A DNA stretch of 64,000 nucleotides from an uncultured Bacteroidales bacterium (GTDB taxonomy: Bacteria; Bacteroidota; Bacteroidia; Bacteroidales; Paludibacteraceae). The notes under the pieces are model-generated. The model saw only the letters and a program-made list of their open reading frames with translations. It searched no databases and was not told the DNA's origin. The stretch is taken from positions 6,975-70,974 of the forward strand of contig ONIM01000006.1 in the NCBI GenBank assembly GCA_900317885.1. The letters run 5' to 3'. Positions 7,879 through 37,697 of this stretch are shown here, in pieces. A program made the position numbers and the translations under genes. Every line of letters starts with the position of its first letter. Position 1 is the stretch's first letter.

Positions 7879-9024
7879 ATGAAAAAGTATTTAGTTGTAT
7901 TGGCAGCACTGGCAATGGTATTGGTAGGCTGCAAGGACAAAGAAAAAGAAGGTGGCAGCGAGTACACCAAGATTTCCATCAAACAAAGTGAGATTACTCT
8001 CGCAGCAGGTGAGACTTACAAGTTGAACCTGCTCTATGAACCGACTACATTGGATGCTCCTGCATGTACTTGGTCAAGCAGCAACGCAGAGGTAGCAACT
8101 GTAGCAAACGGTACCGTTACCGCTGTTGCTCCGGGCGAGGCTACTATCACCGCTAAGTTGGGTGAGTTATCTGCTGCCTGCAAAGTAATCGTTAAGACCG
8201 TTTACGGCGCTTACGAGATTGAAGATTACGGTGTTTTCGGTACTAAACCGGATAGCGTGATCGCAGGAACCGATACGCTCATCAATCTGCCGTGGGCTGG
8301 AGGTGCGTTCAACTGCCAGCTTGCTTTCTGGCCGGTACTGGCATGGGATGGAGACCTGACCTACGTAAGTGGTAGTGGTTTCCAAGGCGCAGGTCTGTTG
8401 CTCTATTCTACTGTTCCTTTCTACACTATTAATGATGAGAACGCTGGACAGGACAACGGCACTCCGGTCGGCTGGGGTAGTTTCAATTTCAAAGACGTGA
8501 ATGGAAAAGCTCGTAGAAACAACGTTGGTCAGGCAGGTAAGATGGACAGAGACAAATACTGCGAGTACATGGATTCCTACATCACTGAACTTTTGGCTGG
8601 TGGTAAAGGAGAGAACATCAAGTGGGATTTATTCCCTGAGGCAATCGATCAAAAGAGCGCTATCATCTTCGTTGCTGACTACACCGCTAAAGAGCCGGAG
8701 TGGGAGATTGACTACGGATTGGTACGTGCTCTTGTAAAAGACATGGAACTTGTATGGGACGCTGAGGCAAAGGCATTCTCGTACACCGCAACTATCGATT
8801 GGTTCAACAATCTGGATGAAAATCACTACTTTGGTTTGGCTTACACCGAGGAAGGCGTAACAAAACCGTATGACCTGAGCATCATCACTGAGAAGTATGC
8901 TTATGGCAATCCGGTAAATAATGCTCCTGCACTGAACGAGCCGTATAAACTAAAACACTACAAAGAGATTCCTGAGATCAGATTAGGTCGCAAAGTTGTT
9001 ACCGATATGTTGACCAAAAAGTAA
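7879..9024 (+). CDS. Surface lipoprotein with bacterial Ig-like (Big_2) domain, PUL accessory protein
   Basis: Lipobox (LVGCKDK). Big_2-like segment ITLAAGETYKLNLLYEP...WSSSNAEVATVANGTVTAVAPGEATITAKLGELSAACKVIV. Confidence 0.75.
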   Translation: MKKYLVVLAALAMVLVGCKDKEKEGGSEYTKISIKQSEITLAAGETYKLNLLYEPTTLDAPACTWSSSNAEVATVANGTVTAVAPGEATITAKLGELSAACKVIVKTVYGAYEIEDYGVFGTKPDSVIAGTDTLINLPWAGGAFNCQLAFWPVLAWDGDLTYVSGSGFQGAGLLLYSTVPFYTINDENAGQDNGTPVGWGSFNFKDVNGKARRNNVGQAGKMDRDKYCEYMDSYITELLAGGKGENIKWDLFPEAIDQKSAIIFVADYTAKEPEWEIDYGLVRALVKDMELVWDAEAKAFSYTATIDWFNNLDENHYFGLAYTEEGVTKPYDLSIITEKYAYGNPVNNAPALNEPYKLKHYKEIPEIRLGRKVVTDMLTKK

Positions 9025-9042
9025 TCTTTTAGATTAGTTTTT

Positions 9043-9087
9043 TCAAAAAAAATCCTGCATACTCTTGCGTATGTGGGATTTTTTTTG
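9043..9087 (+). terminator. Rho-independent (bidirectional-looking) terminator
   Basis: A-run, then a 12-bp stem AATCCTGCATAC/GTATGTGGGATT (two G-U pairs) with loop TCTTGC, then T8. Confidence 0.7.
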
Positions 9088-9095
9088 TACCTTTG
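9088..9095 (+). promoter_or_regulatory. -7 promoter box TACCTTTG for the M6 protease gene
   Basis: Exact TAnnTTTG match 28 nt upstream of the ATG at 9123, directly after the terminator. Confidence 0.5.
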
Positions 9096-9122
9096 CGGCC
9101 TAAATTGGAAAATTGTGCATAT

Positions 9123-11921
9123 ATGAAAAGATATTTATTCAGTATGATGGCAGCGTTGGTATGCAGCGCGAGCGTTTATGCAGTAGTAGCATCGCCGGAA
9201 CCGATATCGATTAGGCAGGGCGACGGGACAACGATTATTGTAAAGATGGTAGGCGATGAGTTTCATCACTATTATACCACTTTGGACGGTACCCCACTCC
9301 GCATGGACAAGAAAGGGATGATGGTAGAGGATGCGTCCGTAGTAGAGCCCTCGGAGCAAGCGCGACATATTCGCCGTGCGACGCAACAGGCGACGATAGC
9401 GGGTTCGTATCCGTTAACCGGTTCGCCGAAGAGTTTGGTGATCCTTGTTAACTTCGCGGATTTGAAATTCAGCTACACGCTGGCTGATTTCCAAGCCATG
9501 CTGACGGAGTCCGGTTATAGCAAGAATAACGGTGTAGGTTCCGCGCGCGATTATTTTATTGCGTGCTCGGATAGTATCTTCTCGCCGCAGTTTGACTGCT
9601 ACGGTCCGGTAACCCTGTCTCAGAAATACCCGTACTACGACAGCCACACCAGCCAGATGATTGTAGAGGCATGTAACCTGGTAGCGAACCAAGGTGTAGA
9701 TCTGACCCAGTATGATACGGATAACGACGGCCGTCTTGATAATGTGTTCGTTTATTATGCGGGTCATAACGAGGCAGAGGGTGCAAGTTCGCAGACCATC
9801 TGGCCGCACCGCAGTATCGTTACCACGGGTGACCGCGTACAGAACAAATTGATTTATGACTACGCATGTACGTCAGAGTTGCGCGGTTCTGCTGGAAATG
9901 CGATGTGCGGAATTGGTACTTTCTGTCACGAATTCGGCCACGTATTAGGTCTACCGGATTACTACGACACAGATAATTCACAGACATACACAGTCGGTTC
10001 ATGGGATATCATGTGTTCGGGTAGTTACAACGGCTCCGGCAAGACTCCCCCATCCTATACCGCCGGCGAGCGTTTCCAGTTAGGCTGGATCAAACCTGTT
10101 CAGTTAAAAGACGCCGGCACTTATACTCTGGAGCCATTAGTTACAACCGGTCAATCGTATCTGATAGCCAAAACGGATCACAACTTAAGTTGGGGAAATG
10201 CCAACCCGAACGAATACTGGCTGTTGGAGAACCGCCAGAATTTAGGTTGGGACAGGCACTCCACCAGTCTTCCGGGAACGGGCATGCTGATTTTCCATAT
10301 CACTTATAATTCTGCCATATGGGGTCAGAACGAGCCGAATAACAGTTATCCGCTGCGTTACGACATTGAGGAAGCCGGAGGTGTGAAGGGTTATTCCGCA
10401 CAAAGCGACCCATTCCCAGGATCGCTCAATGTGACCAGTTTCACCCCGATGCTGCATAGCGGAGAGATGTTAGAGCAACCTATCACGGGCATCGTCAAAG
10501 AAGGACAAAACATCGTCTTCACTTTCAAATCGAACGGATTTATGTTTATCCCGACGGAGTTGCCGCTGATAGAGAGCACCTATAACCCCGATACGAAGAA
10601 ATCCTATACGCCGGCATCGTTACTGAAAATTGCGGGTGACCACCTGGACCCGAATGAAGATGTAACGATTGCTATCTCGGGAAGTGGATTTAACATCTCC
10701 ACCGATAGTGCCAACTGGCGTTCTTCGGTGACGGTAAGACCTTCTGTAGACTCCATCCTGGACCAGCTGGTATATGTCCGCTATGCCCCACGCAAACAGG
10801 TGTGCGATGCGCAACGCGGAACCATTTCTGTCCGTCAAGGCGCCAAAGCCGGTTCGTATGCTGTGCGTGCTACAAGTGAGCGTCCGGTGCTAATCAGCAC
10901 TCCAGCGCTGACAACCATCGAAGAGGTCACTCCGACATCCTTTAAGGTTCGTTGGAGACCGGAAGAAGACGCCGAGCAGTATTTCGTTACGCTCTATCAC
11001 ATGGAGGATGGTCAGGAGACGCTCACCGAAAGTTTCGAGGGCTTTGACGACGAGGCTACGGTTTGGGAAAGCGGTTGGTACACCTCATTCTACCGCACCA
11101 CTACAAAGGCAAAGATTGATGGAGCCGAGTCCATGTGGTTTAAGGAGAACAACGAGGTGATTATCTCGCCGATATACCAATTGCCGATCACTAATGTCAG
11201 CGTCTGGCTCAATGCTCCGGCAACTACCGATTCAGAGGTCGGATTCATTACTATGATCGGTGTTTCCGATGCAGGACGTGATACGCTGGATGTGATACAT
11301 ATCTCCAAGAGCACGAAGAAATACACCTATACAAAGAGTATAAACGAATCTATGGGTTACCGCCGTATTGAGATGATATACACCTCTCTGGGCGGCGAAG
11401 GTGTTTGCGTAGATGCCTTCCAGGCTACGTTCAATCAAAAGACCATTTACACTTATAAAGGTCGCGAAAAGACAATTAATGCGGTTGAAGGGGATATGGC
11501 TGAAGACTACACTATTTTCTACGCGTATGACTTAAAACCGAATACTACCTACTACGTGCGTCTGCAATGCGCAGAGAATAAAGGCTGCGAAGAACATCTG
11601 AGTAGTCTGAGTCAACCGGACTTCATTCATACTCGTGCAGGTGAAGCCGTTGATTCCAAGCATCTTACGTACGCGTACGACTCCATTAACTACGACCCGG
11701 CAAGACATGTCATCTACCTGCCGCAGTCGCTTGTTTCGGGTCATGTAAATATCTATTCGCCGGAGGGAGAATTGGTGAAGAGTATACCTGTTTCGCCGAC
11801 GAATAATATCATTCCTTTAGAGGGCGATGAGTTCCGCCGCGGAACGATGTACATGATCAAATACATGCCGGAAGACAAGATGGGCCGCAAGAGTCCGTGG
11901 ATCAAGATTATTTTCCTGTAA
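9123..11921 (+). CDS. M6 (immune inhibitor A-like) family metalloprotease with FN3-like domain and T9SS C-terminal sorting domain
   Basis: Zinc motif HEFGHVLGLPDYYD. Signal peptide from the ATG at 9123 (MKRYLFSMMAALVCSASVYA); the listed ORF start 9093 is a TTG. C-terminus VNIYSPEGELVKSI...MYMIKY...IKIIFL resembles a T9SS CTD. Confidence 0.88.
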   Translation: MKRYLFSMMAALVCSASVYAVVASPEPISIRQGDGTTIIVKMVGDEFHHYYTTLDGTPLRMDKKGMMVEDASVVEPSEQARHIRRATQQATIAGSYPLTGSPKSLVILVNFADLKFSYTLADFQAMLTESGYSKNNGVGSARDYFIACSDSIFSPQFDCYGPVTLSQKYPYYDSHTSQMIVEACNLVANQGVDLTQYDTDNDGRLDNVFVYYAGHNEAEGASSQTIWPHRSIVTTGDRVQNKLIYDYACTSELRGSAGNAMCGIGTFCHEFGHVLGLPDYYDTDNSQTYTVGSWDIMCSGSYNGSGKTPPSYTAGERFQLGWIKPVQLKDAGTYTLEPLVTTGQSYLIAKTDHNLSWGNANPNEYWLLENRQNLGWDRHSTSLPGTGMLIFHITYNSAIWGQNEPNNSYPLRYDIEEAGGVKGYSAQSDPFPGSLNVTSFTPMLHSGEMLEQPITGIVKEGQNIVFTFKSNGFMFIPTELPLIESTYNPDTKKSYTPASLLKIAGDHLDPNEDVTIAISGSGFNISTDSANWRSSVTVRPSVDSILDQLVYVRYAPRKQVCDAQRGTISVRQGAKAGSYAVRATSERPVLISTPALTTIEEVTPTSFKVRWRPEEDAEQYFVTLYHMEDGQETLTESFEGFDDEATVWESGWYTSFYRTTTKAKIDGAESMWFKENNEVIISPIYQLPITNVSVWLNAPATTDSEVGFITMIGVSDAGRDTLDVIHISKSTKKYTYTKSINESMGYRRIEMIYTSLGGEGVCVDAFQATFNQKTIYTYKGREKTINAVEGDMAEDYTIFYAYDLKPNTTYYVRLQCAENKGCEEHLSSLSQPDFIHTRAGEAVDSKHLTYAYDSINYDPARHVIYLPQSLVSGHVNIYSPEGELVKSIPVSPTNNIIPLEGDEFRRGTMYMIKYMPEDKMGRKSPWIKIIFL

Positions 11922-12985: not shown

Positions 12986-13027
12986 GTGGGGAAATGTGGT
13001 GTATATCAAAAAAAAGTTGTAACTTTG
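12986..13027 (+). promoter_or_regulatory. dcw promoter: -7 box TAACTTTG (13020-13027) preceded by two GTGG(G/T) boxes 10 nt apart (candidate MraZ operator)
   Basis: GTGGG at 12986 and GTGGT at 12996. TAnnTTTG lies 60 nt upstream of the mraZ ATG. Confidence 0.4.
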
Positions 13028-13086
13028 TGCCCGAAATTGAAAGAGTATAGCAAACTGAGTACAGAATACAGCAAAGCGATATAGAT

Positions 13087-13585: not shown

Positions 13586-13629
13586 ATAACGCGGAAATAA
13601 CGTGGAAATAACGCGCTAATCACGCGCTT
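13586..13629 (+). repeat. 11-nt tandem array x4 (AATAACGCGGA / AATCACGCGCT) in the mraZ-rsmH spacer
   Basis: aataacgcgga/aataacgtgga/aataacgcgct/aatcacgcgct, read directly. Related to the array at 38473. Confidence 0.9.
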
Positions 13630-13751
13630 AGGATGAATAAAAAGAACGTAAACAGGCAATAAAAGGAGAACAAAGAAAAGGCTATAAACAGCCCCCCCCA
13701 AAAAAAAAGAATAAAAATAAATAAATAATAAATAAATAATAAATAGAGAAG

Positions 13752-14780
13752 ATGGAAGAGATATACCACATACCGGCGATGCTGAAAGAGACGATAGAGG
13801 GTTTGGCGATCAAGCCGAACGGGGTGTATGTGGATGTCACTTTCGGCGGCGGAGGACACAGCAGGGCGATATTGGAGAAGATAGCCCCACCCGACCTCCC
13901 CATAGAGGGGAGGAGAAAAGGAGAGAAGGAAGAAAAGGGAGGGCGGCTATTCTCGTTCGACCAGGATATAGAGGCATATGAAAATGCGAAGGAAGACGGA
14001 GAAGCGGCATTCATAGATAATCCGAGATGGACGTTTGTGCATTCGAATTTCAGGTATCTGCGGAACTGGATGGATTATTACGGGGTGCAAGAGATTGACG
14101 GGTTGCTGGCAGATTTAGGAGTTAGTTTTCACCATTTCGATTGTCCGGAGCGAGGGTTTAGTTTTCGGTTCAGCGCGCCGTTAGACATGCGGATGAACCA
14201 GACGGCGAAACGGACGGCGGCGGATATAGTAAACGGGTACAGCGAGGAGGAGTTAGCGAAGATTTTCTGGTTATACGGCGAAATGAAGAACGGGAGGGGC
14301 ATCGCAAGGAATATATGCAAGGCCCGTTCTCAGAAGCCGATTTTAAGGACAGAGGAGCTGGTAGAAGCGGCGCTGAACATAAAAGCCCAGCCCCACCCTA
14401 ACCCTCCCCATGAAGGGGAGGGAAGCCGGGAGCTGGATATTCCGGCGCAGTACAAGAAGGATCTGGCGAGGCTGTTTCAGGCGCTCAGGATAGAGGTGAA
14501 CGATGAGATGGGGGCGCTGCGGGAGATGTTAGTGGCGGCACGGGATTTAGTGAAGCCCGGAGGACGGATAGCCATCCTGACGTACCACTCGTTAGAGGAT
14601 CGGTTGGTGAAGAATTTCTTTAGAAGCGGAAACCTGGAAGGGACGATAGAAAAAGACTTTTACGGAAACGCGATTACTCCGTTTGATGTTATCGAGAAAG
14701 GGCGAGTGGCCAGCGACGATGAAGTAGAACGGAACCCGCGTAGCCGGAGTGCGAAGTTGCGGGTGGCGGAGAAAAAATAA
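13752..14780 (+). CDS. rsmH: 16S rRNA (cytosine1402-N4)-methyltransferase RsmH, carrying two short in-frame insertions
   Basis: MEEIYHIPAMLKE..., SAM-binding DVTFGGGGHS, LTYHSLEDRLVK, NPRSRSAKLRV. Synteny after mraZ. Confidence 0.93.
   Translation: MEEIYHIPAMLKETIEGLAIKPNGVYVDVTFGGGGHSRAILEKIAPPDLPIEGRRKGEKEEKGGRLFSFDQDIEAYENAKEDGEAAFIDNPRWTFVHSNFRYLRNWMDYYGVQEIDGLLADLGVSFHHFDCPERGFSFRFSAPLDMRMNQTAKRTAADIVNGYSEEELAKIFWLYGEMKNGRGIARNICKARSQKPILRTEELVEAALNIKAQPHPNPPHEGEGSRELDIPAQYKKDLARLFQALRIEVNDEMGALREMLVAARDLVKPGGRIAILTYHSLEDRLVKNFFRSGNLEGTIEKDFYGNAITPFDVIEKGRVASDDEVERNPRSRSAKLRVAEKK
13885..13913 (+). repeat. GC-rich palindromic element copy 1 (CCCCACCCGACCTCCCC-ATAGA-GGGGAGG), in frame in rsmH
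   Basis: Inverted repeat CCTCCCC/GGGGAGG with a 5-nt loop. Translated as PPDLPIEGR. Confidence 0.9.
14391..14422 (+). repeat. GC-rich palindromic element copy 2 (CCCCACCCTAACCCTCCCC-ATGAA-GGGGAGGG), in frame in rsmH
   Basis: Read directly. Translated as PHPNPPHEGEG. Confidence 0.9.
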
Positions 14781-14784
14781 GAAT

Positions 14785-15099
14785 ATGGCAGATGTACATG
14801 ACATACAGAGTTGGTTGAACGGCGATATGCTGCGGAGCCAGAAGATCAGAGAACAATACCCGCTGATTGGGTTGATTGTGGGTCTGGTCTTTTTGTATAT
14901 TCTGACGGGTTACCAGTCTGCCAAACAACAACACCGGTTGACGGACACGAAAAAGGAGATGCTGGACGCCAAGTTCCGGTACATGACGATTAGCGCGCAG
15001 TTGACGAATAGCACCAGGCAGAGCCAAGTGATAGAGGTGCTGAAGGTTAACGGAAGTGAGTTGCAAGAAAACCGGGTACCGCCGGTGAAGGTAAAATAA
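14785..15099 (+). CDS. ftsL: FtsL-like cell-division protein
   Basis: 104 aa from the ATG at 14785. Single TM helix (YPLIGLIVGLVFLYILTGY). Position between rsmH and ftsI. The stop overlaps the ftsI ATG (TAATG). Confidence 0.75.
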   Translation: MADVHDIQSWLNGDMLRSQKIREQYPLIGLIVGLVFLYILTGYQSAKQQHRLTDTKKEMLDAKFRYMTISAQLTNSTRQSQVIEVLKVNGSELQENRVPPVKVK

Positions 15100-16895
15100 T
15101 GAGTGACGAGCAGAGAAATACGGTATGGAGGTTCGCGATGATATTCATCGTGATCGCTTTGGGTTTTGTAGCTGTGCTCGCGAAAATCGTGTATATCCAG
15201 GCGGTGGAGAGAGACGAGTGGTTGAAAGTAGCGGAGAAACAAGTGCCGACGAACAGGCCTATTCCTGCGACACGGGGAAATATCCTGGATTGCAACGGAC
15301 GATTGCTGGCGAGCAGTATGCCGCAATATTATATATATATGGATACACGCGTGCCCGCGTTGCACGAGAAAAAGGGGGAGTTGTTCAACAAACATATCGA
15401 CACGCTGGCTCTGGATCTGGCAACGATTATCGGGGATAAGAGCCCGGCGGAGTACAAGGCTAAGATCGTAGGGGCTTACCGGCATGGAGAGAAACGCTTG
15501 CGTGTTTGCGAGAACCGCATCAATTATCTGCAGCGGCAGGCTTTGGAGCAGAACAAGCTCATAAAAAAAGGCAAGTATAAAAGCGGTATTTTCTTTGAGG
15601 ACCAACATAGAAGAATCAAACCTTACGGATTGTTGGCAAGCCGTACGATAGGTGGTATTTACGGCGAAGGCGGAAGTGGTAACTCGGGTCTGGAGAAGGG
15701 TTTTGACAAAGAGTTGAGGGGCGTTGACGGCATGAGCAGTATTCAGCGAATCGGCGGCCGGAATGAGTCCGTGACGGTAGAAGAGGCGCAGGACGGTCGG
15801 GATATTGTGACTACGATTGATGCCAATCTGCAGGATATCGTGGAGAATGCGTTGCTGGCGAAGACGGCGGAACGAAATGCCAAGTGGGGTTGCGCCATAC
15901 TGATGGAGACGCAGACCGGGTACATCCGCGCGATAGCCAATCTGGACAGGTCTGAGGAGGACGGCAAATACTACGAGGCGCAGAACCATGCCGTACAACG
16001 TGTAGAACCGGGTTCGACGTTCAAGACGATTGCTCTGATGGCGGCGCTGGACGACGGGAAGATTGATATAGACGACACAGTGGCGGTTAGTCGGACGCCG
16101 TGGAAATATTTCTCAGTGACGCATACTGACGCCCACCCAATGGACACGATTCTGACGGTGAGGAGCGCTTTGGCGGTGTCTTCGAATATCGCGCTGGCAA
16201 AGTTGATCACGAGGAGTTATGAAGGTTCGGCGCGAAAGTTCGTGAGGCGGATTGAGAAGATGGGACTGCTGGACAGCGTTTATTGCGAGATTCCGGGGGC
16301 TGATAAGGCGCGTATCGAGGTGCCAAAAGACACCGTGACGCTGAGTAAGATGAGTTACGGGTACTCGGTAGAGTTGAGTCCGATGCAGCTTCTGATGTTC
16401 TACAACGCGATTGCCAACGGCGGACGGATGATGCGGCCGATGTTAGTGACCGCGGTGCAGCAGAACGGCGAAGTGGAGGAGAGTTTCAGGCCGGAGGCAG
16501 TGAAGTCTTCTATCTGCGGGAAGGGCACGTTGCGGGATATACAAGGGGCGCTGCATGACGTTGTTTGGGACGACCATCTGGGTACCGCGGCGGCGAAGTT
16601 ATGGAGCAAGAAAGCGCAGTCTAAGCTCGTGAATATCGCCGGCAAGACGGGTACGGCACAGCTGTTTATGCGCGGTCACGGCTACTCGGGCAAACACCAT
16701 AGGATGACTTTTGTGGGGTACTTCCCGGAGGAGAATCCGCAGTACACGTGTATCTGCATGATCGAGGATCCGCAGTACCCGTACGACGCGGGAATGGACT
16801 GCGGCAGCACGGTGCGAGTGATTGCAGAGAAGACGATGGCGTACACAGGATGCTATGTTTGGAAGGATGGAGAACGCAAATTAGTAAAACGATGA
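15099..16895 (+). CDS. ftsI: Penicillin-binding protein 3 / peptidoglycan D,D-transpeptidase FtsI
   Basis: N-terminal TM anchor. Motifs STFK (GSTFKTIALMAAL), SSN (AVSSNIAL) and KTGT (AGKTGTAQ). dcw synteny. Confidence 0.92.
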   Translation: MSDEQRNTVWRFAMIFIVIALGFVAVLAKIVYIQAVERDEWLKVAEKQVPTNRPIPATRGNILDCNGRLLASSMPQYYIYMDTRVPALHEKKGELFNKHIDTLALDLATIIGDKSPAEYKAKIVGAYRHGEKRLRVCENRINYLQRQALEQNKLIKKGKYKSGIFFEDQHRRIKPYGLLASRTIGGIYGEGGSGNSGLEKGFDKELRGVDGMSSIQRIGGRNESVTVEEAQDGRDIVTTIDANLQDIVENALLAKTAERNAKWGCAILMETQTGYIRAIANLDRSEEDGKYYEAQNHAVQRVEPGSTFKTIALMAALDDGKIDIDDTVAVSRTPWKYFSVTHTDAHPMDTILTVRSALAVSSNIALAKLITRSYEGSARKFVRRIEKMGLLDSVYCEIPGADKARIEVPKDTVTLSKMSYGYSVELSPMQLLMFYNAIANGGRMMRPMLVTAVQQNGEVEESFRPEAVKSSICGKGTLRDIQGALHDVVWDDHLGTAAAKLWSKKAQSKLVNIAGKTGTAQLFMRGHGYSGKHHRMTFVGYFPEENPQYTCICMIEDPQYPYDAGMDCGSTVRVIAEKTMAYTGCYVWKDGERKLVKR

Positions 16896-18391
16896 TACTC
16901 AGCGAATTATTAAAAGTTATCGAGCCGATAGAGGTGATCGGCGGGACGGAAAAAGAGATCAAGGGTCTGCATTTTGACAGCCGTAAGATCGGAGAAGGTG
17001 ACTTATTCGTTGCCCAGATCGGCACAGCAGTAGATGGTCACACGTTCATTGATGGTTGTGTCGAAAAAGGGGCAGCGGCGGTGGTACTTTCCAAGAGAGA
17101 GTATATAAGCCCCCACCTGACCTCCCCCATGAAGGGGGAGGAAGGTAAGTGCACCTTCATCTTGGTCGAGAACACGGATAAGGCGTTGGGATTGCTGGCG
17201 AGCAAGTGGTTTGGCGAGCCGAGTAAGGCGTTGACGCTGGTCGGCGTGACGGGTACGAACGGCAAGACCACTATCGCGACGCTGTTGTACAAACTCGTTC
17301 GGGCGTTAGGACATAAGGCGGGACTGCTGTCCACCGTGGTCAATTATATCGAGGATGAGGCGGTGCCTGCGACGCACACGACGCCGGACGCGATTGAGTT
17401 GAACGGATTGCTGAGACGGATGGTGGACGCCGGTTGCGAGTACGCGTTTATGGAGGTGAGTTCGCACGCGATTGCGCAAGAACGAATAGCGGGTCTGGAT
17501 TTCGACGGGGCACTGTTTACCAACCTGACGAGGGATCATATTGACTACCATAAGACTTTTGACAACTACCGGGATACAAAGAAAAGGCTTTTTGACGGAC
17601 TGAAGAAGGGGGCTTTTGCGGTGACGAACAAGGATGACAAGAACGGGTTGGTGATGACGCAGAACTGCAAGGCGGAAGTGAAGACCTACTCCACCCGCTC
17701 GCTGGCGGACTATAAGGCACAGATTTTGGAGGAAGGATTTGAGGGTATGATGCTGAATATCAACGGCAAAGAGGTTTTCGTGCCGCTGGTAGGACGATTC
17801 AACGTCAGCAATCTGCTGTGTATCTACGGCGCGGCGCTGTGTCTGGGATTTGAAGAGCTGGAGGTGCTGCGTGTGCTGAGCACGTTGAAACCGGTTAACG
17901 GTCGGTTTGAGACAATCAGAAGCCCGAAAGGCTGGACGGCGATTGTCGATTACGCCCACACGCCGGACGCGGTAGATAATGTGATTCAGACGATAAGGGA
18001 GATCATTGGAAGTGACAAAGTGACAAAGGACCAAGGACCAAGAAAACTGATCACGGTGGTCGGTTGCGGCGGGAACCGGGACAAGGGTAAACGACCGATG
18101 ATGGCGCAGATTGCAAAGAGGGGAAGCGAGCAGTTGATTTTGACGAGCGATAACCCGCGAGACGAAGAGCCGGCAGATATCTTGAATGATATGAAAGCAG
18201 GTTTGACGGAAGAGGAACTCAGGAGTACGTTGGTTATCGAGGACCGCGAGGCGGCTATCCAGACGGCTTGTATGTTGGCGCAGAAAGGCGATGTGATTCT
18301 GGTGGCAGGCAAGGGTCATGAGGACTACCAGATTATCAAGGGTGTCAAGCACCATTTTGATGATCATGAGATTGTGAGAAGATATTTATGA
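16892..18391 (+). CDS. murE: UDP-N-acetylmuramoyl-L-alanyl-D-glutamate--2,6-diaminopimelate ligase MurE
   Basis: The ATG at 16892 overlaps the ftsI stop (ATGA). P-loop GVTGTNGKTT and DNPR motif (TSDNPRDEEP). The upstream part of ORF 16748 is read-through inside ftsI. Confidence 0.93.
   Translation: MILSELLKVIEPIEVIGGTEKEIKGLHFDSRKIGEGDLFVAQIGTAVDGHTFIDGCVEKGAAAVVLSKREYISPHLTSPMKGEEGKCTFILVENTDKALGLLASKWFGEPSKALTLVGVTGTNGKTTIATLLYKLVRALGHKAGLLSTVVNYIEDEAVPATHTTPDAIELNGLLRRMVDAGCEYAFMEVSSHAIAQERIAGLDFDGALFTNLTRDHIDYHKTFDNYRDTKKRLFDGLKKGAFAVTNKDDKNGLVMTQNCKAEVKTYSTRSLADYKAQILEEGFEGMMLNINGKEVFVPLVGRFNVSNLLCIYGAALCLGFEELEVLRVLSTLKPVNGRFETIRSPKGWTAIVDYAHTPDAVDNVIQTIREIIGSDKVTKDQGPRKLITVVGCGGNRDKGKRPMMAQIAKRGSEQLILTSDNPRDEEPADILNDMKAGLTEEELRSTLVIEDREAAIQTACMLAQKGDVILVAGKGHEDYQIIKGVKHHFDDHEIVRRYL
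17110..17142 (+). repeat. GC-rich palindromic element copy 3 (CCCCCACCTGACCTCCCCC-ATGAA-GGGGGAGG), in frame in murE
   Basis: Read directly. Translated as SPHLTSPMKGEE. Confidence 0.9.
18012..18041 (+). repeat. Tandem 8/7-mers GTGACAAA x2 + GGACCAA x2 in frame in murE
   Basis: gtgacaaagtgacaaaggaccaaggaccaag. Encodes DKVTKDQGPR. Confidence 0.9.
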
Positions 18392-18418
18392 TTTATGATT
18401 TAGGATTTAGGATTTATG
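18384..18418 (+). repeat. 7-nt tandem array x5 (ATTTATG/ATTTAGG) spanning the murE stop and the mraY start
   Basis: atttatg atttatg atttagg atttagg atttatg. The murE TGA (18389-18391) and the mraY ATG (18416-18418) are both inside array units. Confidence 0.95.
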
Positions 18419-19687
18419 TTATATTCATTATTTACCCATTTTAGCGATGTGTTAGGTGCGCGGTTGTTCACCTATATCTCGTTCAGAGCTATTTTAGCGG
18501 GGGTCATCGGACTGCTCGTGAGTATCTGGTTTGGCGACCGGTTTATCAATTTCATGAAGCGCCATCACATCTCTGAGACGCAGCGGGACGAGAAGACCGA
18601 TCCGTTCAATGTAGCGAAAAAAGGTGTACCGACGATGGGTGGTCTGATTGTCATTGCGGCGATTCTGATTCCGTGTCTGCTATTAGGTAAGCTGACGAAC
18701 GTATATATGATTCTGATGCTCGTCACGACCCTTCTGATGGGGGCTCTGGGCTTTGCGGACGACTATATCAAGACGTTCAAGAAGAACAAAGACGGCCTGA
18801 ACGGATGGGTAAAGATTGCAGGGCAAGTGAGCTTGGGTCTGATTGTAGGTCTGACGTTGCGTTTCTGCCCGGCGGTGAGTATGAATGAGGTGGTGACAAG
18901 TCATATTGAGAACAATGTGGTGGTCGTTGAGAAAACGCCGGAGATCAAATCCACACAAACGACTATTCCTTTTGTGAAGCACCATAACTTCAATTATGCG
19001 GATTTGTTCAGTTGGACCGGCGAGAACAATAAGTACCGGTTCGGTTGGATTTTCTTCGTGTTCTTGACGGTTTTTGTAGTAGCGGCGGTTAGCAACGGCG
19101 CGAACCTGAACGACGGCATGGACGGCATGTGTGCCGGCAACTCGGCTATTATCGGCGTGGCGTTGCTGATTTTAGCGTACACGAGCGGTAGTGTTGTTTG
19201 GGCGGAGTATTTCGATGTGATGTACATCCCGGGTAGCGAAGAGTTGGTGGTATTTATGGCGGCTTTTGTAGGTGCGTTGGTGGGTTATCTGTGGTTTAAC
19301 GGGTTCCCGGCGCAGGTGTTCATGGGCGATACAGGAAGTCTGACGGTCGGCGGAATCATCGGCGTTTGCGCGATGGTTATTCATAAGGAACTGATGGTGC
19401 CGGTATTGTGCGGAATATTTTTGATGGAGAGCGTGAGTGTGATTCTGCAGACGCAGGTGTATAAGTACTATAAGAAACGCGGACAACATGTGCGGATCTG
19501 GAAGCGGACGCCGCTCCATGACCATTTCCGGACGAGCGTAGAGCAGGTGCTGAAGAACGATCCGACGTGCTCGATTGTGTTTAAGGGCAGCAAGAATCTG
19601 CACCACGAAACGAAGATCGTACTGCGTTTCTGCATTGTGACGCTGATTTTGGCGGCAATTACTATTTTGACACTGAAAATACGATAA
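18416..19687 (+). CDS. mraY: Phospho-N-acetylmuramoyl-pentapeptide transferase MraY
   Basis: 423 aa polytopic membrane protein. Motifs PTMGG, NLNDGMDG and MGDTGS. Confidence 0.95.
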   Translation: MLYSLFTHFSDVLGARLFTYISFRAILAGVIGLLVSIWFGDRFINFMKRHHISETQRDEKTDPFNVAKKGVPTMGGLIVIAAILIPCLLLGKLTNVYMILMLVTTLLMGALGFADDYIKTFKKNKDGLNGWVKIAGQVSLGLIVGLTLRFCPAVSMNEVVTSHIENNVVVVEKTPEIKSTQTTIPFVKHHNFNYADLFSWTGENNKYRFGWIFFVFLTVFVVAAVSNGANLNDGMDGMCAGNSAIIGVALLILAYTSGSVVWAEYFDVMYIPGSEELVVFMAAFVGALVGYLWFNGFPAQVFMGDTGSLTVGGIIGVCAMVIHKELMVPVLCGIFLMESVSVILQTQVYKYYKKRGQHVRIWKRTPLHDHFRTSVEQVLKNDPTCSIVFKGSKNLHHETKIVLRFCIVTLILAAITILTLKIR

Positions 19688-19689
19688 AT

Positions 19690-21000
19690 ATGAAGCGAAT
19701 CGTTGTTTTAGGAGCCGGAGAGAGTGGTAGCGGTGCTGCCATTCTGGCGAAGGAGAAGGGTTTTGATGTGTTTGTAAGCGACTGCGGGACGATTAGCGAC
19801 CCGTACCGCGCGTTGCTGGACCAGAACGGGGTTTCATGGGAAGACGGCAAGCACAGTGAGGAGTTGATTCTGAATGCCGACGAGGTGGTTAAATCGCCGG
19901 GTATTCCTCTGACGGCTCCGCTGATTCAGAAGCTGCAGGCACAAGGCACGCCGATCATCAGCGAGATTGAGTTTGCATCGAGATATACGAATGCGAAGAT
20001 GATCTGTATCACCGGTTCAAACGGCAAGACGACCACCACTTCGTTGATCTTCTATATCTTAAAACAAGCAGGTCTGAATGTGGGTCTGGCGGGCAATATC
20101 GGCAACTCGCTGGCGTTGCAAGTGGCGCATGAGGATCATGACTACTATGTGATTGAGTTGAGTTCGTTCCAGCTGGACAACATGTACGACTTCAAGGCGG
20201 ATGTCGCCATCTTGCTGAATATCACGCCGGACCACCTGGACCGGTACGACTATAAGTTCCAGAACTACGTCGATGCGAAGTTCCGTATCACGAGGAATCA
20301 AACGAAGGAGGACAGCTTTATTTATTGGGCGGAGGATCCGGTTATTGATAGAGAGATGAAGCGACTGCAGTTAGGCGCGACGCTTTATCCATACGGATTC
20401 ACGGTGCCTAATCCGCTGCCGGTGAGCGAAGAGGAGTTGGCGCTGAAGGGAAGGCATAATGTGCTGAACTCGATGGCAGCGACCATTGCGGCGAATGTAG
20501 TAGGAATCAAGAAAGAGGTCATCCGCGAGAGTCTGAAGACTTTCCAGGGGGTTGAGCACCGTTTGCAATACGTAGCGACCGTTCGCGGCGTGAGATGGAT
20601 CAACGACTCGAAGGCAACGAATGTGAACAGCTGCTGGTACGCGCTGGAGAGTATGACTACGCCGACCGTGCTGATTTTAGGCGGAAAGGACAAAGGCAAC
20701 GACTACAGCGAGATAGACGAGCTGGTGAATGAGAAATGCCACACCTTGGTATTCATGGGGCTGCATAATGAAAAGTTAAGAGAACATTTCGGGAAATTAG
20801 TCGAAAGTCAAAAGTCGAAAGTCGAAAGACCCATTCAAATCATTGATACCAACAACCTGCATGACGCGGTGCAAGCAGCTTATCACGCAGCGAAAGAAGG
20901 CGACACCGTGTTGCTGAGTCCGTGTTGCGCAAGTTTTGACCTCTTTAAGAGTTATGAGGACCGCGGCGAGCAGTTTATGGAGGCCGTTCGGAAGCTTTAA
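19690..21000 (+). CDS. murD: UDP-N-acetylmuramoylalanine--D-glutamate ligase MurD
   Basis: Rossmann-type MKRIVVLGAGESG, P-loop ITGSNGKTTT, C-terminal LLSPCCASFDLFKSYEDRG. Confidence 0.94.
   Translation: MKRIVVLGAGESGSGAAILAKEKGFDVFVSDCGTISDPYRALLDQNGVSWEDGKHSEELILNADEVVKSPGIPLTAPLIQKLQAQGTPIISEIEFASRYTNAKMICITGSNGKTTTTSLIFYILKQAGLNVGLAGNIGNSLALQVAHEDHDYYVIELSSFQLDNMYDFKADVAILLNITPDHLDRYDYKFQNYVDAKFRITRNQTKEDSFIYWAEDPVIDREMKRLQLGATLYPYGFTVPNPLPVSEEELALKGRHNVLNSMAATIAANVVGIKKEVIRESLKTFQGVEHRLQYVATVRGVRWINDSKATNVNSCWYALESMTTPTVLILGGKDKGNDYSEIDELVNEKCHTLVFMGLHNEKLREHFGKLVESQKSKVERPIQIIDTNNLHDAVQAAYHAAKEGDTVLLSPCCASFDLFKSYEDRGEQFMEAVRKL
20795..20831 (+). repeat. 7-nt tandem array (GTCGAAA x4, preceded by AAATTA) in frame in murD
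   Basis: aaattagtcgaaagtcaaaagtcgaaagtcgaaagacc. Encodes KLVESQKSKVERP. Near-identical to the array at 40421. Confidence 0.93.
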
Positions 21001-21031
21001 TGGCGCTAAATAAAGAAAAAAGACAATAAAA

Positions 21032-21063
21032 TTTGCATATATGCAAAAATTGTAGTAATTTTG
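21032..21063 (+). promoter_or_regulatory. Promoter: 16-nt palindrome TTTGCATATATGCAAA (contains -33 TTTG) plus -7 TAATTTTG
   Basis: TTTG at 21032 and TAATTTTG at 21056-21063, 20 nt upstream of the ATG at 21083. Confidence 0.5.
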
Positions 21064-21082
21064 CACGCAAAATTGTACAGAT

Positions 21083-21541
21083 ATGAAAACTATGATGAAA
21101 AAATGCGTATTTCTCGCGCTGATGGCAGTTGTGCTAATCGGTTTGAGCAGTTGCGAGAGAGAAAAGATTGTGTATGAGCCCTGCCAGTTCCACAAAGTGA
21201 ACGTGGATTTTCACGTGCCTCAGAGTGCATGGTCGTTTGATGCGGAGAACGGCTGGTACAGCTACTACTACGAGACGAAACAAATCACCGCATCCATCTA
21301 CGACTACGGAAACTGGACGATGAGTCATGAGTATAACCCCGGAACGGATGACGCGTTTCTTATTCAGTTGCCGGAGTTCCGGTTCCTGCAAGACGAGGGA
21401 ACGGGTGATTTCTACACGCAGCGCACCGATTATCAGGTGGGCGTGGGTTGTGTGATAGTCTATGTAACCAATTCGGACTATGCATATGAGCCGGGTTGGA
21501 AGCCGGATGAGATGTATTTCCACATGCAGATCACTTATTAA
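21083..21541 (+). CDS. Hypothetical lipoprotein
   Basis: MKTMMKKCVFLALMAVVLIGLSSCEREK lipobox. 152 aa, aromatic-rich. No recognised family. Confidence 0.65.
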   Translation: MKTMMKKCVFLALMAVVLIGLSSCEREKIVYEPCQFHKVNVDFHVPQSAWSFDAENGWYSYYYETKQITASIYDYGNWTMSHEYNPGTDDAFLIQLPEFRFLQDEGTGDFYTQRTDYQVGVGCVIVYVTNSDYAYEPGWKPDEMYFHMQITY

Positions 21542-21703
21542 AGACCGCAGCGAAGCTGCTAAAAGAAGAAAGACCGCTTCGCTAAAAGCATAAAGATTAA
21601 TATAGTCAGGAAGATATACATAGCAGGTCCCTGTTCGGCTGAGAGCCGCGCGCAGGTACTTGAGACCGCTGAAGAGTTATCAGCGGTCGGTTGTCCGTTA
21701 GGC

Positions 21704-22765
21704 GTGTCTTTTATTTTTCGCGCGGGCGTATGGAAGCCGCGCACGAGCCCGCACACGTTTCAAGGTGTGGGAGAAGAGGGGCTGGTGTGGCTCAAGGAAG
21801 TAAAGGAGCGTTATGGGATGGAGGTTGCTACAGAGGTGGCGACGCCTGAACATGTAGAGGCGGCCTTGAAAGCGGGAGTGGATTATTTGTGGATAGGCGC
21901 CAGGTCGTCTGCCAATCCCATTGCTGTGCAAGAGATTGCGACAGCGATAGGAGACCGGGTACGCCTGACAGAACACCGACCGGCTTCTTTACCCGCAGGG
22001 GGTACGATTATTTCGCCTGACAGGACACCGGCCAAGACGATATTAAAAGGTATCCTGATCAAGAATCCGGTGAATAACGATGCAGCCTTGTGGATCGGGA
22101 ATATCGAACGATTGGAGAAGACGGGTGTGCCGGTGATTGCGGTTCATCGAGGTTGCGGTCATCAGCCGTGTTGGGCGATGGCGCACGCGGTACGGTTGGC
22201 ACGGCCGGATATACCGATGTTGTTAGATCCGAGTCACATGAGCGGTGATGCAAAGAAAGTGCCGGAGCTGATGAAGAAGATTGAGGAGTTGGGTTTGGAC
22301 GGCGCGATGGTAGAAGTTCATTGCCGACCGGAGGAAGCTTTATCTGACGCCAAGCAACAGATAGAGCCCAGAACCTTAGCGGAGCTAATACCCTTCGGAG
22401 TAACTCGCCCCCTGCTCGACGAGTTTTGGCGTACCCCTTCGCCAAAACACGCCTCCGAGAGGGTATCATCTCCTAACACGAAAGAAGAAGGTAGAGAGAG
22501 AAGAGAAAATACAGAACTCAATTGGTTGCGTGCAGAGATAGACGAATTAGACAGCCGATTATGGGAGACGATTTCTGCGCGAATGGACGTCAGCCGGCGA
22601 ATCGGTATATGGAAGAAAGCACATGACGTAGCGCCGTTGCAACCCAAACGATTCCAACAATTGAGCGAACAAGTAGCACATTTTGCAAAGGAGAACGGTT
22701 TGTCTGCGAATTTTGCGCAAGAGGTATTAAAACTGATACACGAAGAGAGTCTTAAACAGCAATAA
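21704..22765 (+). CDS. 3-deoxy-7-phosphoheptulonate (DAHP) synthase type I-beta fused to C-terminal chorismate mutase. The true start is probably upstream and non-canonical.
   Basis: FRAGVWKPRTSPHTFQGVGEEGLVWLKEV, TEVATPEHVEAAL, LWIGARSSANP. C-terminal CM type II helices (LRAEIDELDSRLWETISARMDVSRRIG). The conserved IAGPCSAES lies in frame upstream of the listed GTG (see findings). Confidence 0.8.
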   Translation: MSFIFRAGVWKPRTSPHTFQGVGEEGLVWLKEVKERYGMEVATEVATPEHVEAALKAGVDYLWIGARSSANPIAVQEIATAIGDRVRLTEHRPASLPAGGTIISPDRTPAKTILKGILIKNPVNNDAALWIGNIERLEKTGVPVIAVHRGCGHQPCWAMAHAVRLARPDIPMLLDPSHMSGDAKKVPELMKKIEELGLDGAMVEVHCRPEEALSDAKQQIEPRTLAELIPFGVTRPLLDEFWRTPSPKHASERVSSPNTKEEGRERRENTELNWLRAEIDELDSRLWETISARMDVSRRIGIWKKAHDVAPLQPKRFQQLSEQVAHFAKENGLSANFAQEVLKLIHEESLKQQ

Positions 22766-33490: not shown

Positions 33491-34597
33491 TTATTGTCCG
33501 AGGCGGTGGAGATGGCAGAGCATGAGGGATCCGTCCTCCCGGCGGAGGTGCATGCCGTTTCCTTCGCAGTACGTCCATGCTTTGCAGTCTTTGCAGGGTT
33601 CGAGTTGCCGCATCCAAGAGCGGTCTCGGTAGGGCTTGAAGCCGTTTTCCCATACGGACCAGAAGGAGTCGCGGTAGATGTTTCCCTGGTAGTATTTGCC
33701 GCGGATGGAGGTGCAGGCAGAGATGGAACCGTCGATGAGGATGGAAGCGACGGAGATACCGGCGGCACATTGATACAGGTGGTCCCGGACGCGCCCCTCG
33801 TAGGTGCCGAGATAACCTTCGCAGGAATAAGAGACATGCCGCCCTGCTTCGCGCTCGGAGGCAATATAATCCATGAGGTATTGGAACTGTTCGTCGGTCA
33901 GCAGGAGTTCGGGATTAGAAGCCGCGCGGCCCATAGGGTCGATGCCGAAGACACGCCAGTCTCGCACGCCGAGCGACCAAAGCATCTCACGGATTTGGGG
34001 CAGGTGGTCTATCGTGCGTTGGTTGACACAAGTGACGACGTCGAAGGCGAGGTGAGGCCCCACCCGACCTCCCCATGAAGGGGAGGAGAGAGAGTTATTA
34101 TAATCAACTATCAGTTTGATGGCACGGGTGGCACCTTCGAAAGCCAAAGGGTGCTGACGAAGCCAGACATGGTCTTGCTCGAGACCATCGCAGGAGACCG
34201 TGATAGAGCGTAAACCGGCAGAGAGGAGTTCGTGGAATTTCTGTTCGGTCAGAGCAAGTCCGTTGGTTACCATGCCCCATGGATAGCCTCGTTGCTTGAG
34301 GGCACGGCCTATCTCTGCAAGGTCTTTGCGCATGAGGGGTTCACCGCCGGAAATGATGATCAGCACTTTGTGCGGATCGACATGCGGCGTGATCTCTGTA
34401 TCAATGACCCGAAGGAAATCTTCTGCGGGCATGTCGGGTGTCTCGATGGAAGCAACGCAATCGCTGCCGCAATGCAGGCAATGCACATTGCAGCGGAGCG
34501 TGGACTCCCAGAAGAGTTGACGGAGAGGATGCAATTCCTTCAGGTTGCGGCGGCGGATGGACTCCAGCCAGAGGGCAATTTTCAAACGGAGATTCAT
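33491..34597 (-). CDS. Radical SAM enzyme with C-terminal SPASM (auxiliary 4Fe-4S) domain
   Basis: CNVHCLHCGS (CxxxCxxC) near the N-terminus, IISGGEP. C-terminal Cys-rich region (CEGYLGTYEG...YQCAAGISV...SACTSIRG...LEPCKDCKAWTYCEGNG). Translationally linked to an upstream lipoprotein gene. Confidence 0.88.
   Translation of the reverse strand: MNLRLKIALWLESIRRRNLKELHPLRQLFWESTLRCNVHCLHCGSDCVASIETPDMPAEDFLRVIDTEITPHVDPHKVLIIISGGEPLMRKDLAEIGRALKQRGYPWGMVTNGLALTEQKFHELLSAGLRSITVSCDGLEQDHVWLRQHPLAFEGATRAIKLIVDYNNSLSSPSWGGRVGPHLAFDVVTCVNQRTIDHLPQIREMLWSLGVRDWRVFGIDPMGRAASNPELLLTDEQFQYLMDYIASEREAGRHVSYSCEGYLGTYEGRVRDHLYQCAAGISVASILIDGSISACTSIRGKYYQGNIYRDSFWSVWENGFKPYRDRSWMRQLEPCKDCKAWTYCEGNGMHLRREDGSLMLCHLHRLGQ
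34058..34086 (+). repeat. GC-rich palindromic element copy 4 (CCCCACCCGACCTCCCC-ATGAA-GGGGAGG), in frame in the minus-strand rSAM gene
   Basis: Same plus-strand orientation as copies 1-3, but the gene is on the minus strand. Translated as SPSWGGRVGPH. Confidence 0.9.
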
Positions 34598-36783: not shown

Positions 36784-37184
36784 TATTTTTTCTTGAGGTG
36801 GAAATCCTGACGGACGATGGCTGTTTCCTTGTCAGCGCCCTTTTCTTTCTGATAAACAATATTGCTGATATGCGCCGAATCGGAAGCGTATTCTCCCGAA
36901 GGATCGACCACGATAATATCAATCTCCCGCGCGCCCATCCAACTATAGTCGCGATAGATGCCCTCCTCGTTGGTGTAGGTCCGGGGCATGATAGGCTGTC
37001 CATGACTCTTGACCGTGACCTGCATAGCCTCCAGAGCACCTTCTTTCTCCGCGTCAACGATACCCCACACCTCTAATTCCGTGTCCGGGACACCATACTT
37101 CACCATATTACAACTACCAAAACCAAAAGCGGCTAATACAATAGTTAACAGCGCGTTAACAGATGTCAGAAATGTGCGTTTCAT
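36783..37184 (-). CDS. rSAM-associated-type putative lipoprotein (paralog B1)
   Basis: MKRTFLTSVNALLTIVLAAFGFGSC-NMVKYGVP. Beta-sandwich pattern (WGIVDAEKEG...TNEEGIYRDY...IDIIVVDPSGEY) parallel to the 34612..35058 product. Confidence 0.72.
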   Translation of the reverse strand: MKRTFLTSVNALLTIVLAAFGFGSCNMVKYGVPDTELEVWGIVDAEKEGALEAMQVTVKSHGQPIMPRTYTNEEGIYRDYSWMGAREIDIIVVDPSGEYASDSAHISNIVYQKEKGADKETAIVRQDFHLKKK

Positions 37185-37396
37185 ACCTTTTCCATTTTAG
37201 AGATTTCTTCCGCCTCTTTATGAAGCATTTCATCCAGCTGCTTTTGGTCATGAATAGTGTCGCGACGGTCGGGTTCGTTCATCCAATTTTCGTCCGGAGG
37301 GGCAGGGGCATAGCAGGCAGCAAAAGTGAACGCTACCCCTGTCAGTAGGCAGAGCTTGATGCTCATCCGCAAAATGTAGTCAATCATGTTTCGCAT
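37181..37396 (-). CDS. Small acidic lipoprotein (paralog A1, 71 aa)
   Basis: MRNMIDYILRMSIKLCLLTGVAFTFAAC-YAPAPP... Its N-terminal half is near-identical to the 37698..37889 product. ATGA overlap with B1. Confidence 0.6.
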   Translation of the reverse strand: MRNMIDYILRMSIKLCLLTGVAFTFAACYAPAPPDENWMNEPDRRDTIHDQKQLDEMLHKEAEEISKMEKV

Positions 37397-37421
37397 AACG
37401 GTACGGGATTAAAATTTGCTG

Positions 37422-37429: not shown

Positions 37430-37491
37430 GTGTGTTTTGGCGAGATATGCAAATTTTGGTGTTGGGAAATTTATTGGGATTTTATTTTGCG

Positions 37492-37692: not shown

Positions 37693-37697
37693 AGTAT

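Follow-up and report, generated by a model that had tools for sequence, protein, structure and literature searches.

How does one short G/C-rich repeat come to lie inside several essential genes of a bacterium and to be read through in each of them? The question is raised by a 64,000-nt stretch from an uncultured Bacteroidales bacterium of the family Paludibacteraceae (GenBank assembly GCA_900317885.1, contig ONIM01000006.1, positions 6,975 to 70,974 of the forward strand; hereafter the window), in which rsmH holds two copies, and murE and a TIGR04133-type radical S-adenosylmethionine (SAM)/SPASM gene (rSAM gene) hold one each. The original prediction, made from the letters of the window, regarded the repeat as a palindromic element similar to Rickettsia palindromic elements (RPEs). 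We found instead a three-block element of about 30 nt that occurs in many phyla and is predicted to be an intrastrand triplex motif (TM), and the same motif bounds genes of the DUF559 nuclease family.

The four G/C-rich copies lie where they had been placed (13885, 14391, 17110, and 34058), all with the C-rich strand on the plus strand. As 33-nt repeat units they span positions 13884-13916, 14392-14424, 17110-17142, and 34057-34089, and the element itself is 29-33 nt long. The pattern CTCCCC-N4-8-GGGGAG matched four times in the 64-kb window against 0.03 expected, and the left arm gave six overlapping matches against 0.26 expected. A general triplex-motif scan of the 64 kb returned four sites only, and 200 shuffled versions gave no site. 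Copies 1 and 4, at non-homologous loci, share 94% identity. The predicted hairpins of 7-8 G/C pairs were borne out by RNA folding, which gave -14.6 to -22.3 kcal/mol for the copies. The locus is identical in four independent metagenome assemblies (L001-L004) and is thus not an assembly artefact. The names of homologs and the origin of the samples point to a rumen member of the Paludibacteraceae. A scan of the window at Rfam gathering thresholds found one tRNA and nothing else.

What the original prediction had overlooked is a 5' CCCCACC block in strict register with the hairpin. Read on the minus strand, each copy consists of a pyrimidine (Y) arm, a 5-nt loop, a homopurine (R) arm, a 3-nt loop, and a reverse-Hoogsteen G/T arm: CCTCCCC/TCTAT/GGGGAGG/TCG/GGTGGGG in copy 1 (13885..13913), CCCTCCCC/TTCAT/GGGGAGGG/TTA/GGGTGGGG in copy 2 (14391..14422), CCTCCCCC/TTCAT/GGGGGAGG/TCA/GGTGGGGG in copy 3 (17110..17141), and CCTCCCC/TTCAT/GGGGAGG/TCG/GGTGGGG in copy 4 (34058..34086). 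Watson-Crick pairs and triads are perfect (7/7 or 8/8) in all four copies; the triads are G.G-C and T.A-T, and a T of the third arm stands opposite the single A-T pair in every copy. The three arms covary. In the murE copy all three are shifted jointly relative to the other copies (CCTCCCCC / GGGGGAGG / GGTGGGGG), and at rsmH site 1 of relative L007 they read CCCTCTC / GAGAGGG / GGGTGAG. With three blocks on one strand, loops of 1-6 nt, stems of at least 6-8 nt, allowed triads, and over-representation relative to shuffles, each copy is, as a fold predicted from its sequence, a perfect three-block class II purine intrastrand TM. We also considered a G-quadruplex: the G-strand of copy 2 has four G-runs, but copies 1 and 4 have GG runs only, and the triplex register is perfect in all four. 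Readings as a repetitive extragenic palindromic (REP) sequence with its REP-associated tyrosine transposase (RAYT), as a diversity-generating retroelement, or as a CRISPR-like (clustered regularly interspaced short palindromic repeat) array were ruled out by the anatomy.

The supposition that such an element had no described equivalent did not survive, since this kind of motif is known in Escherichia coli, first as BoxC, then as PIT ("potential intrastrand triplex") elements, and later as TMECO (PMC4666352). A TMECO census counted 3610 in 262 proteobacterial genomes and found many G/C-rich motifs in cyanobacteria; a single strand of an E. coli TM forms a stable triplex in vitro, and TMECO showed no promoter or terminator activity (PMC4666352). 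The E. coli TMs are exclusively intergenic (23/23 in K-12), frequently form inverted pairs, and are surrounded by hypervariable loci (PMC4666352). The intergenic location does not apply in the window, where all four copies lie inside open reading frames (ORFs), in frame. A TMECO-like variant with a GAGAGGG core is present in L007. Our search of the literature with the motif string returned papers on G-quadruplex oligonucleotides only, and a search for in-frame palindromic elements in Bacteroidetes returned REP and Mollicutes papers only.

All four copies are read through in frame, as predicted; three lie in plus-strand genes and one in a minus-strand gene. In rsmH (13752-14780, plus strand; translations ...IAPPDLPIEGRRKGE... 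and ...AQPHPNPPHEGEGSRE...), copy 1 directly follows the GGGGHS SAM loop and copy 2 is read as PHPNPPHEGEG. Copy 3 is read as SPHLTSPMKGEE in murE (16892-18391, plus strand; ...YISPHLTSPMKGEEGK...), whose true start is the ATG at 16892, overlapping the stop codon of the penicillin-binding protein gene. Copy 4 is translated from its G-rich strand as SPSWGGRVGPH in the rSAM gene (33491-34597, minus strand; ...SLSSPSWGGRVGPHLAF...). The four copies use four different frame/strand registers and, in relatives, intergenic copies occur as well (L007 11804-11835, L129, and L130), which marks the repeat as a DNA-level repeat rather than a protein motif. It has 4-5 open frames out of 6 and encodes Pro-rich, then Gly-rich, linker-like peptides, which would make survival within genes easy.

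Mapped against solved RsmH and MurE structures, the inserts appear as alignment gaps. At RsmH site 1, 16-19 extra residues lie between the GGGGHS helix and the next strand in alignments to Protein Data Bank (PDB) sequences. The short GEEG loop that the original prediction gave for E. coli RsmH proved correct: PDB 3TKA reads ILSQL--GEEGRLLAIDRD where this RsmH adds 16 residues. Site 2 has about 12-15 extra residues relative to solved structures, and MurE has 8 in its N-terminal domain. Loop placement rests on these PDB-sequence alignments, as an AlphaFold2 model of RsmH from a 25-sequence alignment had a mean pLDDT (predicted local distance difference test) of 44.9 and was unusable.

Comparison with relatives showed that the occupied sites are insertion/deletion hot spots. 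RsmH orthologs that share at least 90% identity in their cores vary in length between 309 and 465 aa owing to three insertion hot spots. At rsmH site 1, the window has a block of 51 nt (about 13882-13935) that includes copy 1 and a purine-rich tail and is missing from L005 and L006, and the site is empty in many orthologs. The site at 14391 is found among relatives in several states: TM alone, TM followed by long arrays of further hairpins, other modules, or a decayed hairpin, PHPLPERRG (L006 and L128). Relatives carry a complete second hairpin module, of which the window has the first half, AGCCGG, after copy 2. In the murE loop there is a TM in the window and in L128 and a TGTACA-type module in L005; L006 and L007 have short sequences there. 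Five orthologs of the rSAM gene (P0137, P0142, P0182, P0217, and P0240; 81-89% identity) have nothing at the loop, and closer orthologs show TM-like variants. Close orthologs without inserts, or with other modules, at the rsmH, murE, and rSAM sites contradict an ancestral loop. The copies are thus lineage-specific in-frame insertions at permissive hypervariable loops, as read from these alignments, and this rumen Paludibacteraceae lineage has received many TM insertions. Of the earlier picture of a small element tolerated in frame in surface loops, the insertion at hypervariable loops stands, and the plain RPE-like palindrome does not.

In the division and cell wall (dcw) loci of Paludibacteraceae, 12 of 17 motifs are intragenic and 16 of 17 share one orientation, including the window copy in the antisense gene. 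This bias hints at a replication-related rather than a transcription-related cause. GC skew tentatively suggests that plus is the leading strand over 4-44 kb, in which case the template for leading-strand synthesis might hold the G-rich arm of the four copies.

The hot spots also contain further arrays of short G/C hairpins (GCCGGATGACATCCGGC, GCGGGATGGCATCCCGC, GGGGCTAAAGACCCGC, GGCGGAATACCGCC, and CCGCCAAGCATGGCGG) with purine-rich spacers, which usually begin with a TM. They lie at L007 10160-10330 and 11836-12000, at L129 10230-10330 and L129 rsmH site 3, and at rsmH site 3 of L130. Such arrays, resembling mosaics of bacterial interspersed mosaic elements (BIMEs), are intergenic or form stop-free in-frame RsmH inserts of up to about 70 aa; no GCCGGATGACATCCGGC-type or other hairpin-array module is found in the window. 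In L129 (10150-10400; RsmH ortholog P0103), the inserted modules are flanked on both sides by copies of a host segment of about 42 nt, HLYSFDQDIEAYEN, and in E. coli the 3' end of ycjD is likewise partly duplicated in the interval between ycjD and its TMECO (L131 4250-4480). Flanking host-sequence duplications may be the signature of an insertion or repair mechanism. Furthermore, L007 alone has a PF05635 gene (four-helix-bundle, "23S rRNA IVS protein") at 8941-9315, inserted upstream of mraZ and flanked by AATTCACAATGTACAATTCACAA and TTGTACAAA...TTGTAAATTGTGAATT (region 8900-9400). The same CACAAT/TGTACA module occurs in frame in other orthologs (RsmH P0049 and P0103, and MurE of L005) as NSQCTVHNSQ, LTIHNSQ, and DVQRDNVRCT. 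This gene and its solo in-frame repeat look like a second small-gene/repeat pairing, parallel to DUF559 and the TM.

The motif is not an invention of Bacteroidota, as matches occur in many phyla. A scan with the pattern CCCCACC-N3-5-CCTCCCC-N4-7-GGGGAGG over one genome per GTDB species gave at least 144 matches in at least 120 stretches, against about 3 expected by our own estimate under uniform base composition. The matches listed come from Alpha-, Beta-, Gamma-, and Deltaproteobacteria, Cyanobacteria, Melainabacteria, Chloroflexi, Nitrospirota, Planctomycetota, Bacteroidota, the candidate phyla radiation (CPR), and others. Among them, inverted doublets are frequent, and both a TTA in loop 2 and a CCCCACCC-YRR-CCCTCCCC consensus recur across phyla. 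In listed loci with GC below 56%, most copies lie outside long ORFs; the clear mid-ORF cases come from two gut or rumen Bacteroidales, one Ignavibacteriales, and one Saccharibacteria. The two Bacteroidales hosts are a putative MetH-like protein and a putative glycyl-radical enzyme, as judged by reading their sequences. Clustering of neighbour genes among the matches listed gave no family in more than 6 of 120 loci, which speaks against a transposase being closely linked to most sites. The same clustering brought up DUF559.

One relative, L129, carries a 125-aa DUF559 gene (PF04480) between rsmH and ftsL that is missing in the window and in five other relatives. Its ATG is preceded, at a distance of 12 nt, by a TM, and its stop codon is directly followed by an inverted TM-like element. 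DUF559 ORFs abutted TMs in 6/6 cases in the loci examined, from Bacteroidota, Alpha- and Gammaproteobacteria, and Chloroflexi. In a TM-blind test, 80 metagenomic loci were picked by DUF559 protein similarity alone, with a two-sequence alignment as the query. A G/C-rich TM lay within 150 nt of the DUF559 gene ends in 64 of them, and the density of TMs there was 3.98 per kb compared with 0.26 per kb in the remaining flanks (15-fold; binomial P about 1e-50). Where TMs were present on both sides (36 loci), they were inverted in 34, with the third arms outermost in 15 and innermost in 19. The R-arm core was identical on both sides in 28/36, against 11.9 expected with shuffled partners and a maximum of 21 in 2000 shuffles. 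Since these inverted pairs match each other and differ between loci, they are matched terminal inverted repeats of DUF559 elements. DUF559 cassettes from across the bacteria have TMs as their inverted ends.

In E. coli K-12 (NC_000913.3), a TMECO at 1351204-1351239 lies 168 nt downstream of ycjD on the same strand, and ycjD is the annotated DUF559 gene of the 6-kb region examined (L131; locus 1351204-1351760). Among 5426 complete E. coli genomes, 3377 carry the ycjD locus in full; in O157:H7 and others the TMECO part alone is matched, elsewhere in the genome. DUF559 belongs to the Vsr clade of PD-(D/E)xK nucleases together with the homing endonuclease I-Bth0305I (PMC3424549). We found no paper in the literature searched that links DUF559 or ycjD with BoxC, PIT, or TM.

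Whole cassettes also occur inside housekeeping genes. An open frame extends more than 60 aa beyond the DUF559 match in about 30 of the 80 loci, and TM-DUF559-TM is in frame with the host ORF wherever a host is recognisable (for example L153, L160, L171, L141, and L148 of L132-L211). LeuRS is a host at two or more sites, with two cassettes in L160; the N-terminus of IspF hosts a cassette in eight loci; and in RecG the cassette lies between the two helicase lobes (DEAD and Helicase_C domains). Pfam searches back this nested architecture in LeuRS, IspF, and RecG, where only DUF559 stands between the host-domain halves and no Hint or intein domain was found in the insert of about 170 aa. Methylmalonyl-CoA mutase, UDP-galactopyranose mutase, and others are further putative hosts, as judged from their translated sequences. 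The flanking TMs encode linkers, e.g., TPNPSPKERG...SPLPWRGAGGEV, and the DUF559 catalytic residues (conserved in alignment A4) are retained in the translated in-frame copies.

The best explanation overall, which we consider probable on balance, is that the window carries a TM repeat of a known kind, seen within genes as its in-frame survivors, and that TMs are DUF559-cassette termini and their solo derivatives. That TMs are the terminal repeats of a hitherto unrecognised class of minimal selfish element spanning phyla, in which inverted TMs enclose a roughly 120-aa DUF559 PD-(D/E)xK nuclease gene, is a more tentative proposal, which we think slightly likelier to be wrong than right. Such an element could enter essential genes with no intein or intron, since the full cassette, or a solo end, would be translated in frame as an insert flanked by linkers. 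The third arm could fold onto the hairpin, forming G.G-C and T.A-T triads, and in the proposed mechanism TMs would serve as termini or recognition structures of the tiny DUF559 nuclease cassette. We infer DUF559 to be the mobiliser of TMs, which may spread when breaks made by the nuclease are repaired from a template. In this scheme, a solo TM or a TM pair without a gene would be a non-autonomous derivative or footprint, comparable to the relation of REPs to RAYTs, or of miniature inverted-repeat transposable elements (MITEs) to insertion sequences (IS). Within genes, the survivors would be the in-frame, stop-free copies in permissive surface loops, most likely without a host function.

Several points weigh against this explanation. 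To our knowledge, nuclease activity of DUF559 on TMs has never been demonstrated. The 64-kb window contains no DUF559 gene, which leaves mobilisation in trans hypothetical in this genome. A clean target-site duplication or sharp insertion boundary was not found at the filled and empty sites compared, where the flanks have diverged or been replaced. With cores of GGGGAGG, GGGGAGGG, or GGGGGAGG and arms of 7-8 nt, the window copies fall off the strict 9-nt TMECO pattern, CCCTCNCCC N3-6 GGGNGAGGG N3 GGGNGAGGG, and do not match it. In E. coli, triplex formation in vivo was not detected and TMs showed no strand bias, and Holder et al. found no link of TMs to mobile elements (PMC4666352). E. coli strains without ycjD still carry TMECOs. 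Finally, DUF559 genes that target TMs or TM pairs already in place would account for the TM-DUF559 association equally well.

In that last case DUF559 would be a homing-type gene, inserting as IS elements do into REPs, and TMs would be kept or spread by some other process or host function. The TMECOs retained without ycjD would then be expected, as would the gene-less inverted TM pairs that are common among the matches listed (see also PMC4666352) and the excess of TMs over DUF559 genes (17 vs 1 in Paludibacteraceae loci). However, the LeuRS, RecG, and IspF cassettes bring both TMs and gene into hosts whose canonical forms have neither, and the matched ends covary between elements like true terminal repeats. 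We therefore regard the homing account as unlikely. We are just as doubtful that TMs are immobile and arise repeatedly de novo at break-prone sites by fold-back or template-switch repair, with DUF559 and other DNA landing at the same sites. Such repair could account for the presence, at the same hot spots, of numerous short G/C hairpins that are unrelated and have purine-rich spacers (GCCGGATGACATCCGGC, GCGGGATGGCATCCCGC, and GGCGGAATACCGCC), for the host-sequence duplications flanking inserts in L129 RsmH and downstream of ycjD, and for the local instability to which Holder et al. tie TMs (PMC4666352). It does not sit well with near-identical 33-nt copies, loops and left arm included, at non-homologous loci, with a loop-2 TTA and arm consensus that recur across phyla among the matches listed, or with TM pairs around one DUF559 gene that match far above chance.

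The original reading, a lineage-specific palindromic MITE akin to RPEs, we reject as highly improbable. The copies are indeed in frame, polymorphic, and located in loops, and each has a hairpin of 7-8 G/C pairs, but the motif is found in many phyla, belongs to the described BoxC/PIT/TMECO class, is about 30 nt long with a third arm in strict register rather than a palindrome of 100-150 bp, and has no terminal inverted repeat (TIR) or target-site duplication (TSD) structure at the sites compared. Equally remote is selection of the in-frame copies as host features, either ribosome-pausing mRNA hairpins for co-translational folding or flexible Pro/Gly linkers: their stable hairpins (-14.6 to -22.3 kcal/mol), position between structural elements, and linker-like peptides would suit such roles, but among orthologs at least 90% identical they are present, absent, or replaced by unrelated modules, some have decayed (e.g., PHPLPERRG in L006 and L128), and the same DNA is used in four registers.

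TMs are an abundant and conserved class whose origin, spread, and function have been unexplained since BoxC, the sole proposal being "genome instability". The DNA motif class is known; its in-frame occupancy of essential genes in Bacteroidota, its association with DUF559, and the nested cassettes appear to be unreported. The association points to a candidate mobilising enzyme and gives the uncharacterised E. coli ycjD a testable function. In-frame TMs cause large length polymorphism in otherwise near-identical proteins (309 to 465 aa in RsmH) of gut and rumen Bacteroidota, with consequences for gene calling, ortholog clustering, and strain typing in metagenomes. The in-frame cassettes in LeuRS, RecG, and IspF represent parasitism of coding sequence without splicing. 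If true, a minimal TM-DUF559 element would explain the origin of E. coli BoxC, open for about 30 years, would provide a function for DUF559/YcjD, and would give nuclease genes a third way into coding sequence alongside inteins and introns.

The window has further features apart from the TMs. At 44112-44327, a CAA/CAG repeat of about 215 nt (Gln-rich, with Asp/Glu/Asn) is in frame at the junction of the ORFs 43431-44420 and 44414-46276, in a BatA-D-like (von Willebrand/TPR) gene run. Tandem 11-mers, ATAACGCGCTA / ATCACGCGCTT, occupy the mraZ-rsmH spacer (13597-13630) and occur again between genes 25 kb away (38481-38514); they are possibly a regulator binding site. Tandem 7-nt repeats of the ATTTATGATTTAG type lie in the murE-mraY spacer (18370-18431) and in an ORF spacer at 40.7 kb (40759-40806). 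A conserved block of roughly 40 nt ending in TTGTAGTAACTTTGCGCG stands upstream of three operons (2740-2779, SusC; 12992-13031, mraZ; 21028-21067, the ORF after murD) and resembles the Bacteroidota TAnnTTTG promoter consensus. In the window (19690-22765) and most relatives, murD is followed by a small ORF and a DAHP (3-deoxy-D-arabino-heptulosonate 7-phosphate) synthase/chorismate mutase gene and not by ftsW and murG, which indicates that the dcw cluster is split in this sublineage; L129 (16942-20706) retains murD-ftsW-murG. Two diverged direct repeats at 37182-37456 and 37690-37949 (about 74-77% identity over 68 and 162 nt), 500 nt apart, indicate that a small minus-strand gene was duplicated in tandem together with the region upstream of it.

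Among known systems, the window copies are closest in anatomy to the BoxC/PIT/TMECO elements (Bachellier, 1990s; Hoyne & Maher 2000; Holder et al. 2015, PMC4666352). Both have one-strand Y-loop-R-loop-RH (reverse-Hoogsteen) blocks with G.G-C and T.A-T triads and a second loop of 3 nt, often TTA; both are dispersed and multicopy, with frequent inverted pairs in other genomes and with loci that are hypervariable between close relatives. However, the arms in the window are 7-8 nt with a GGGGAGG(G) core, compared with 9 nt of GGGNGAGGG in TMECO, and the window copies are intragenic and translated in essential genes, whereas those of E. coli K-12 are intergenic (23/23). The host also differs, being a rumen Paludibacteraceae of the Bacteroidota, as does the strong orientation bias (16/17 in dcw loci), and an association with DUF559 is unreported for BoxC/PIT/TMECO.

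With REPs, REP doublets (REPINs), and RAYTs, TMs share short dispersed hairpin repeats as solo copies and inverted doublets, and non-autonomous copies that far outnumber a single-copy gene flanked by repeats. Unlike REPs, which are extragenic, TMs have no GTAG or CGTC tag and are flanked by CCCCACC... and GGTGGGG, and the flanked gene encodes a PD-(D/E)xK DUF559 nuclease, not an HUH Y1 transposase. No RAYT (IS200-like Y1) gene was found beside the repeats in the loci, where DUF559 is the only recurrent neighbour; whole genomes were not searched for RAYT. Relative to MITEs, solo copies have no TIR or TSD at the sites compared, and the ends of TM-DUF559-TM are matched and inverted. RPEs are Rickettsia-restricted long palindromes of about 100-150 bp that encode a folded peptide segment. 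TMs resemble them in being inserted in frame in protein genes, tolerated at surface positions, and without a transposase of their own, and are set apart from this description by an element of about 30 nt that is three-part and cross-phylum. Cyanobacterial small dispersed repeats (SDRs), reportedly described by Elhai et al. in 2008, are said to be 21-27-nt hairpin repeats found between and inside genes with the frame kept. Their sequence families differ from TMs and are lineage-specific, and we know of no triplex register or nuclease-gene association described for them.

The in-frame cassettes, finally, recall inteins and free-standing or Vsr-like homing endonuclease genes (for example I-Bth0305I; Dassa et al. 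2009, PMC2677866), with which they share a selfish nuclease gene of the Vsr/DUF559 clade placed in frame at conserved housekeeping sites such as LeuRS and RecG. In contrast to inteins and introns, TM-DUF559-TM has no Hint/splicing domain or intron, and its TM repeats encode Pro/Gly linkers; the cassette must therefore remain in the mature protein.

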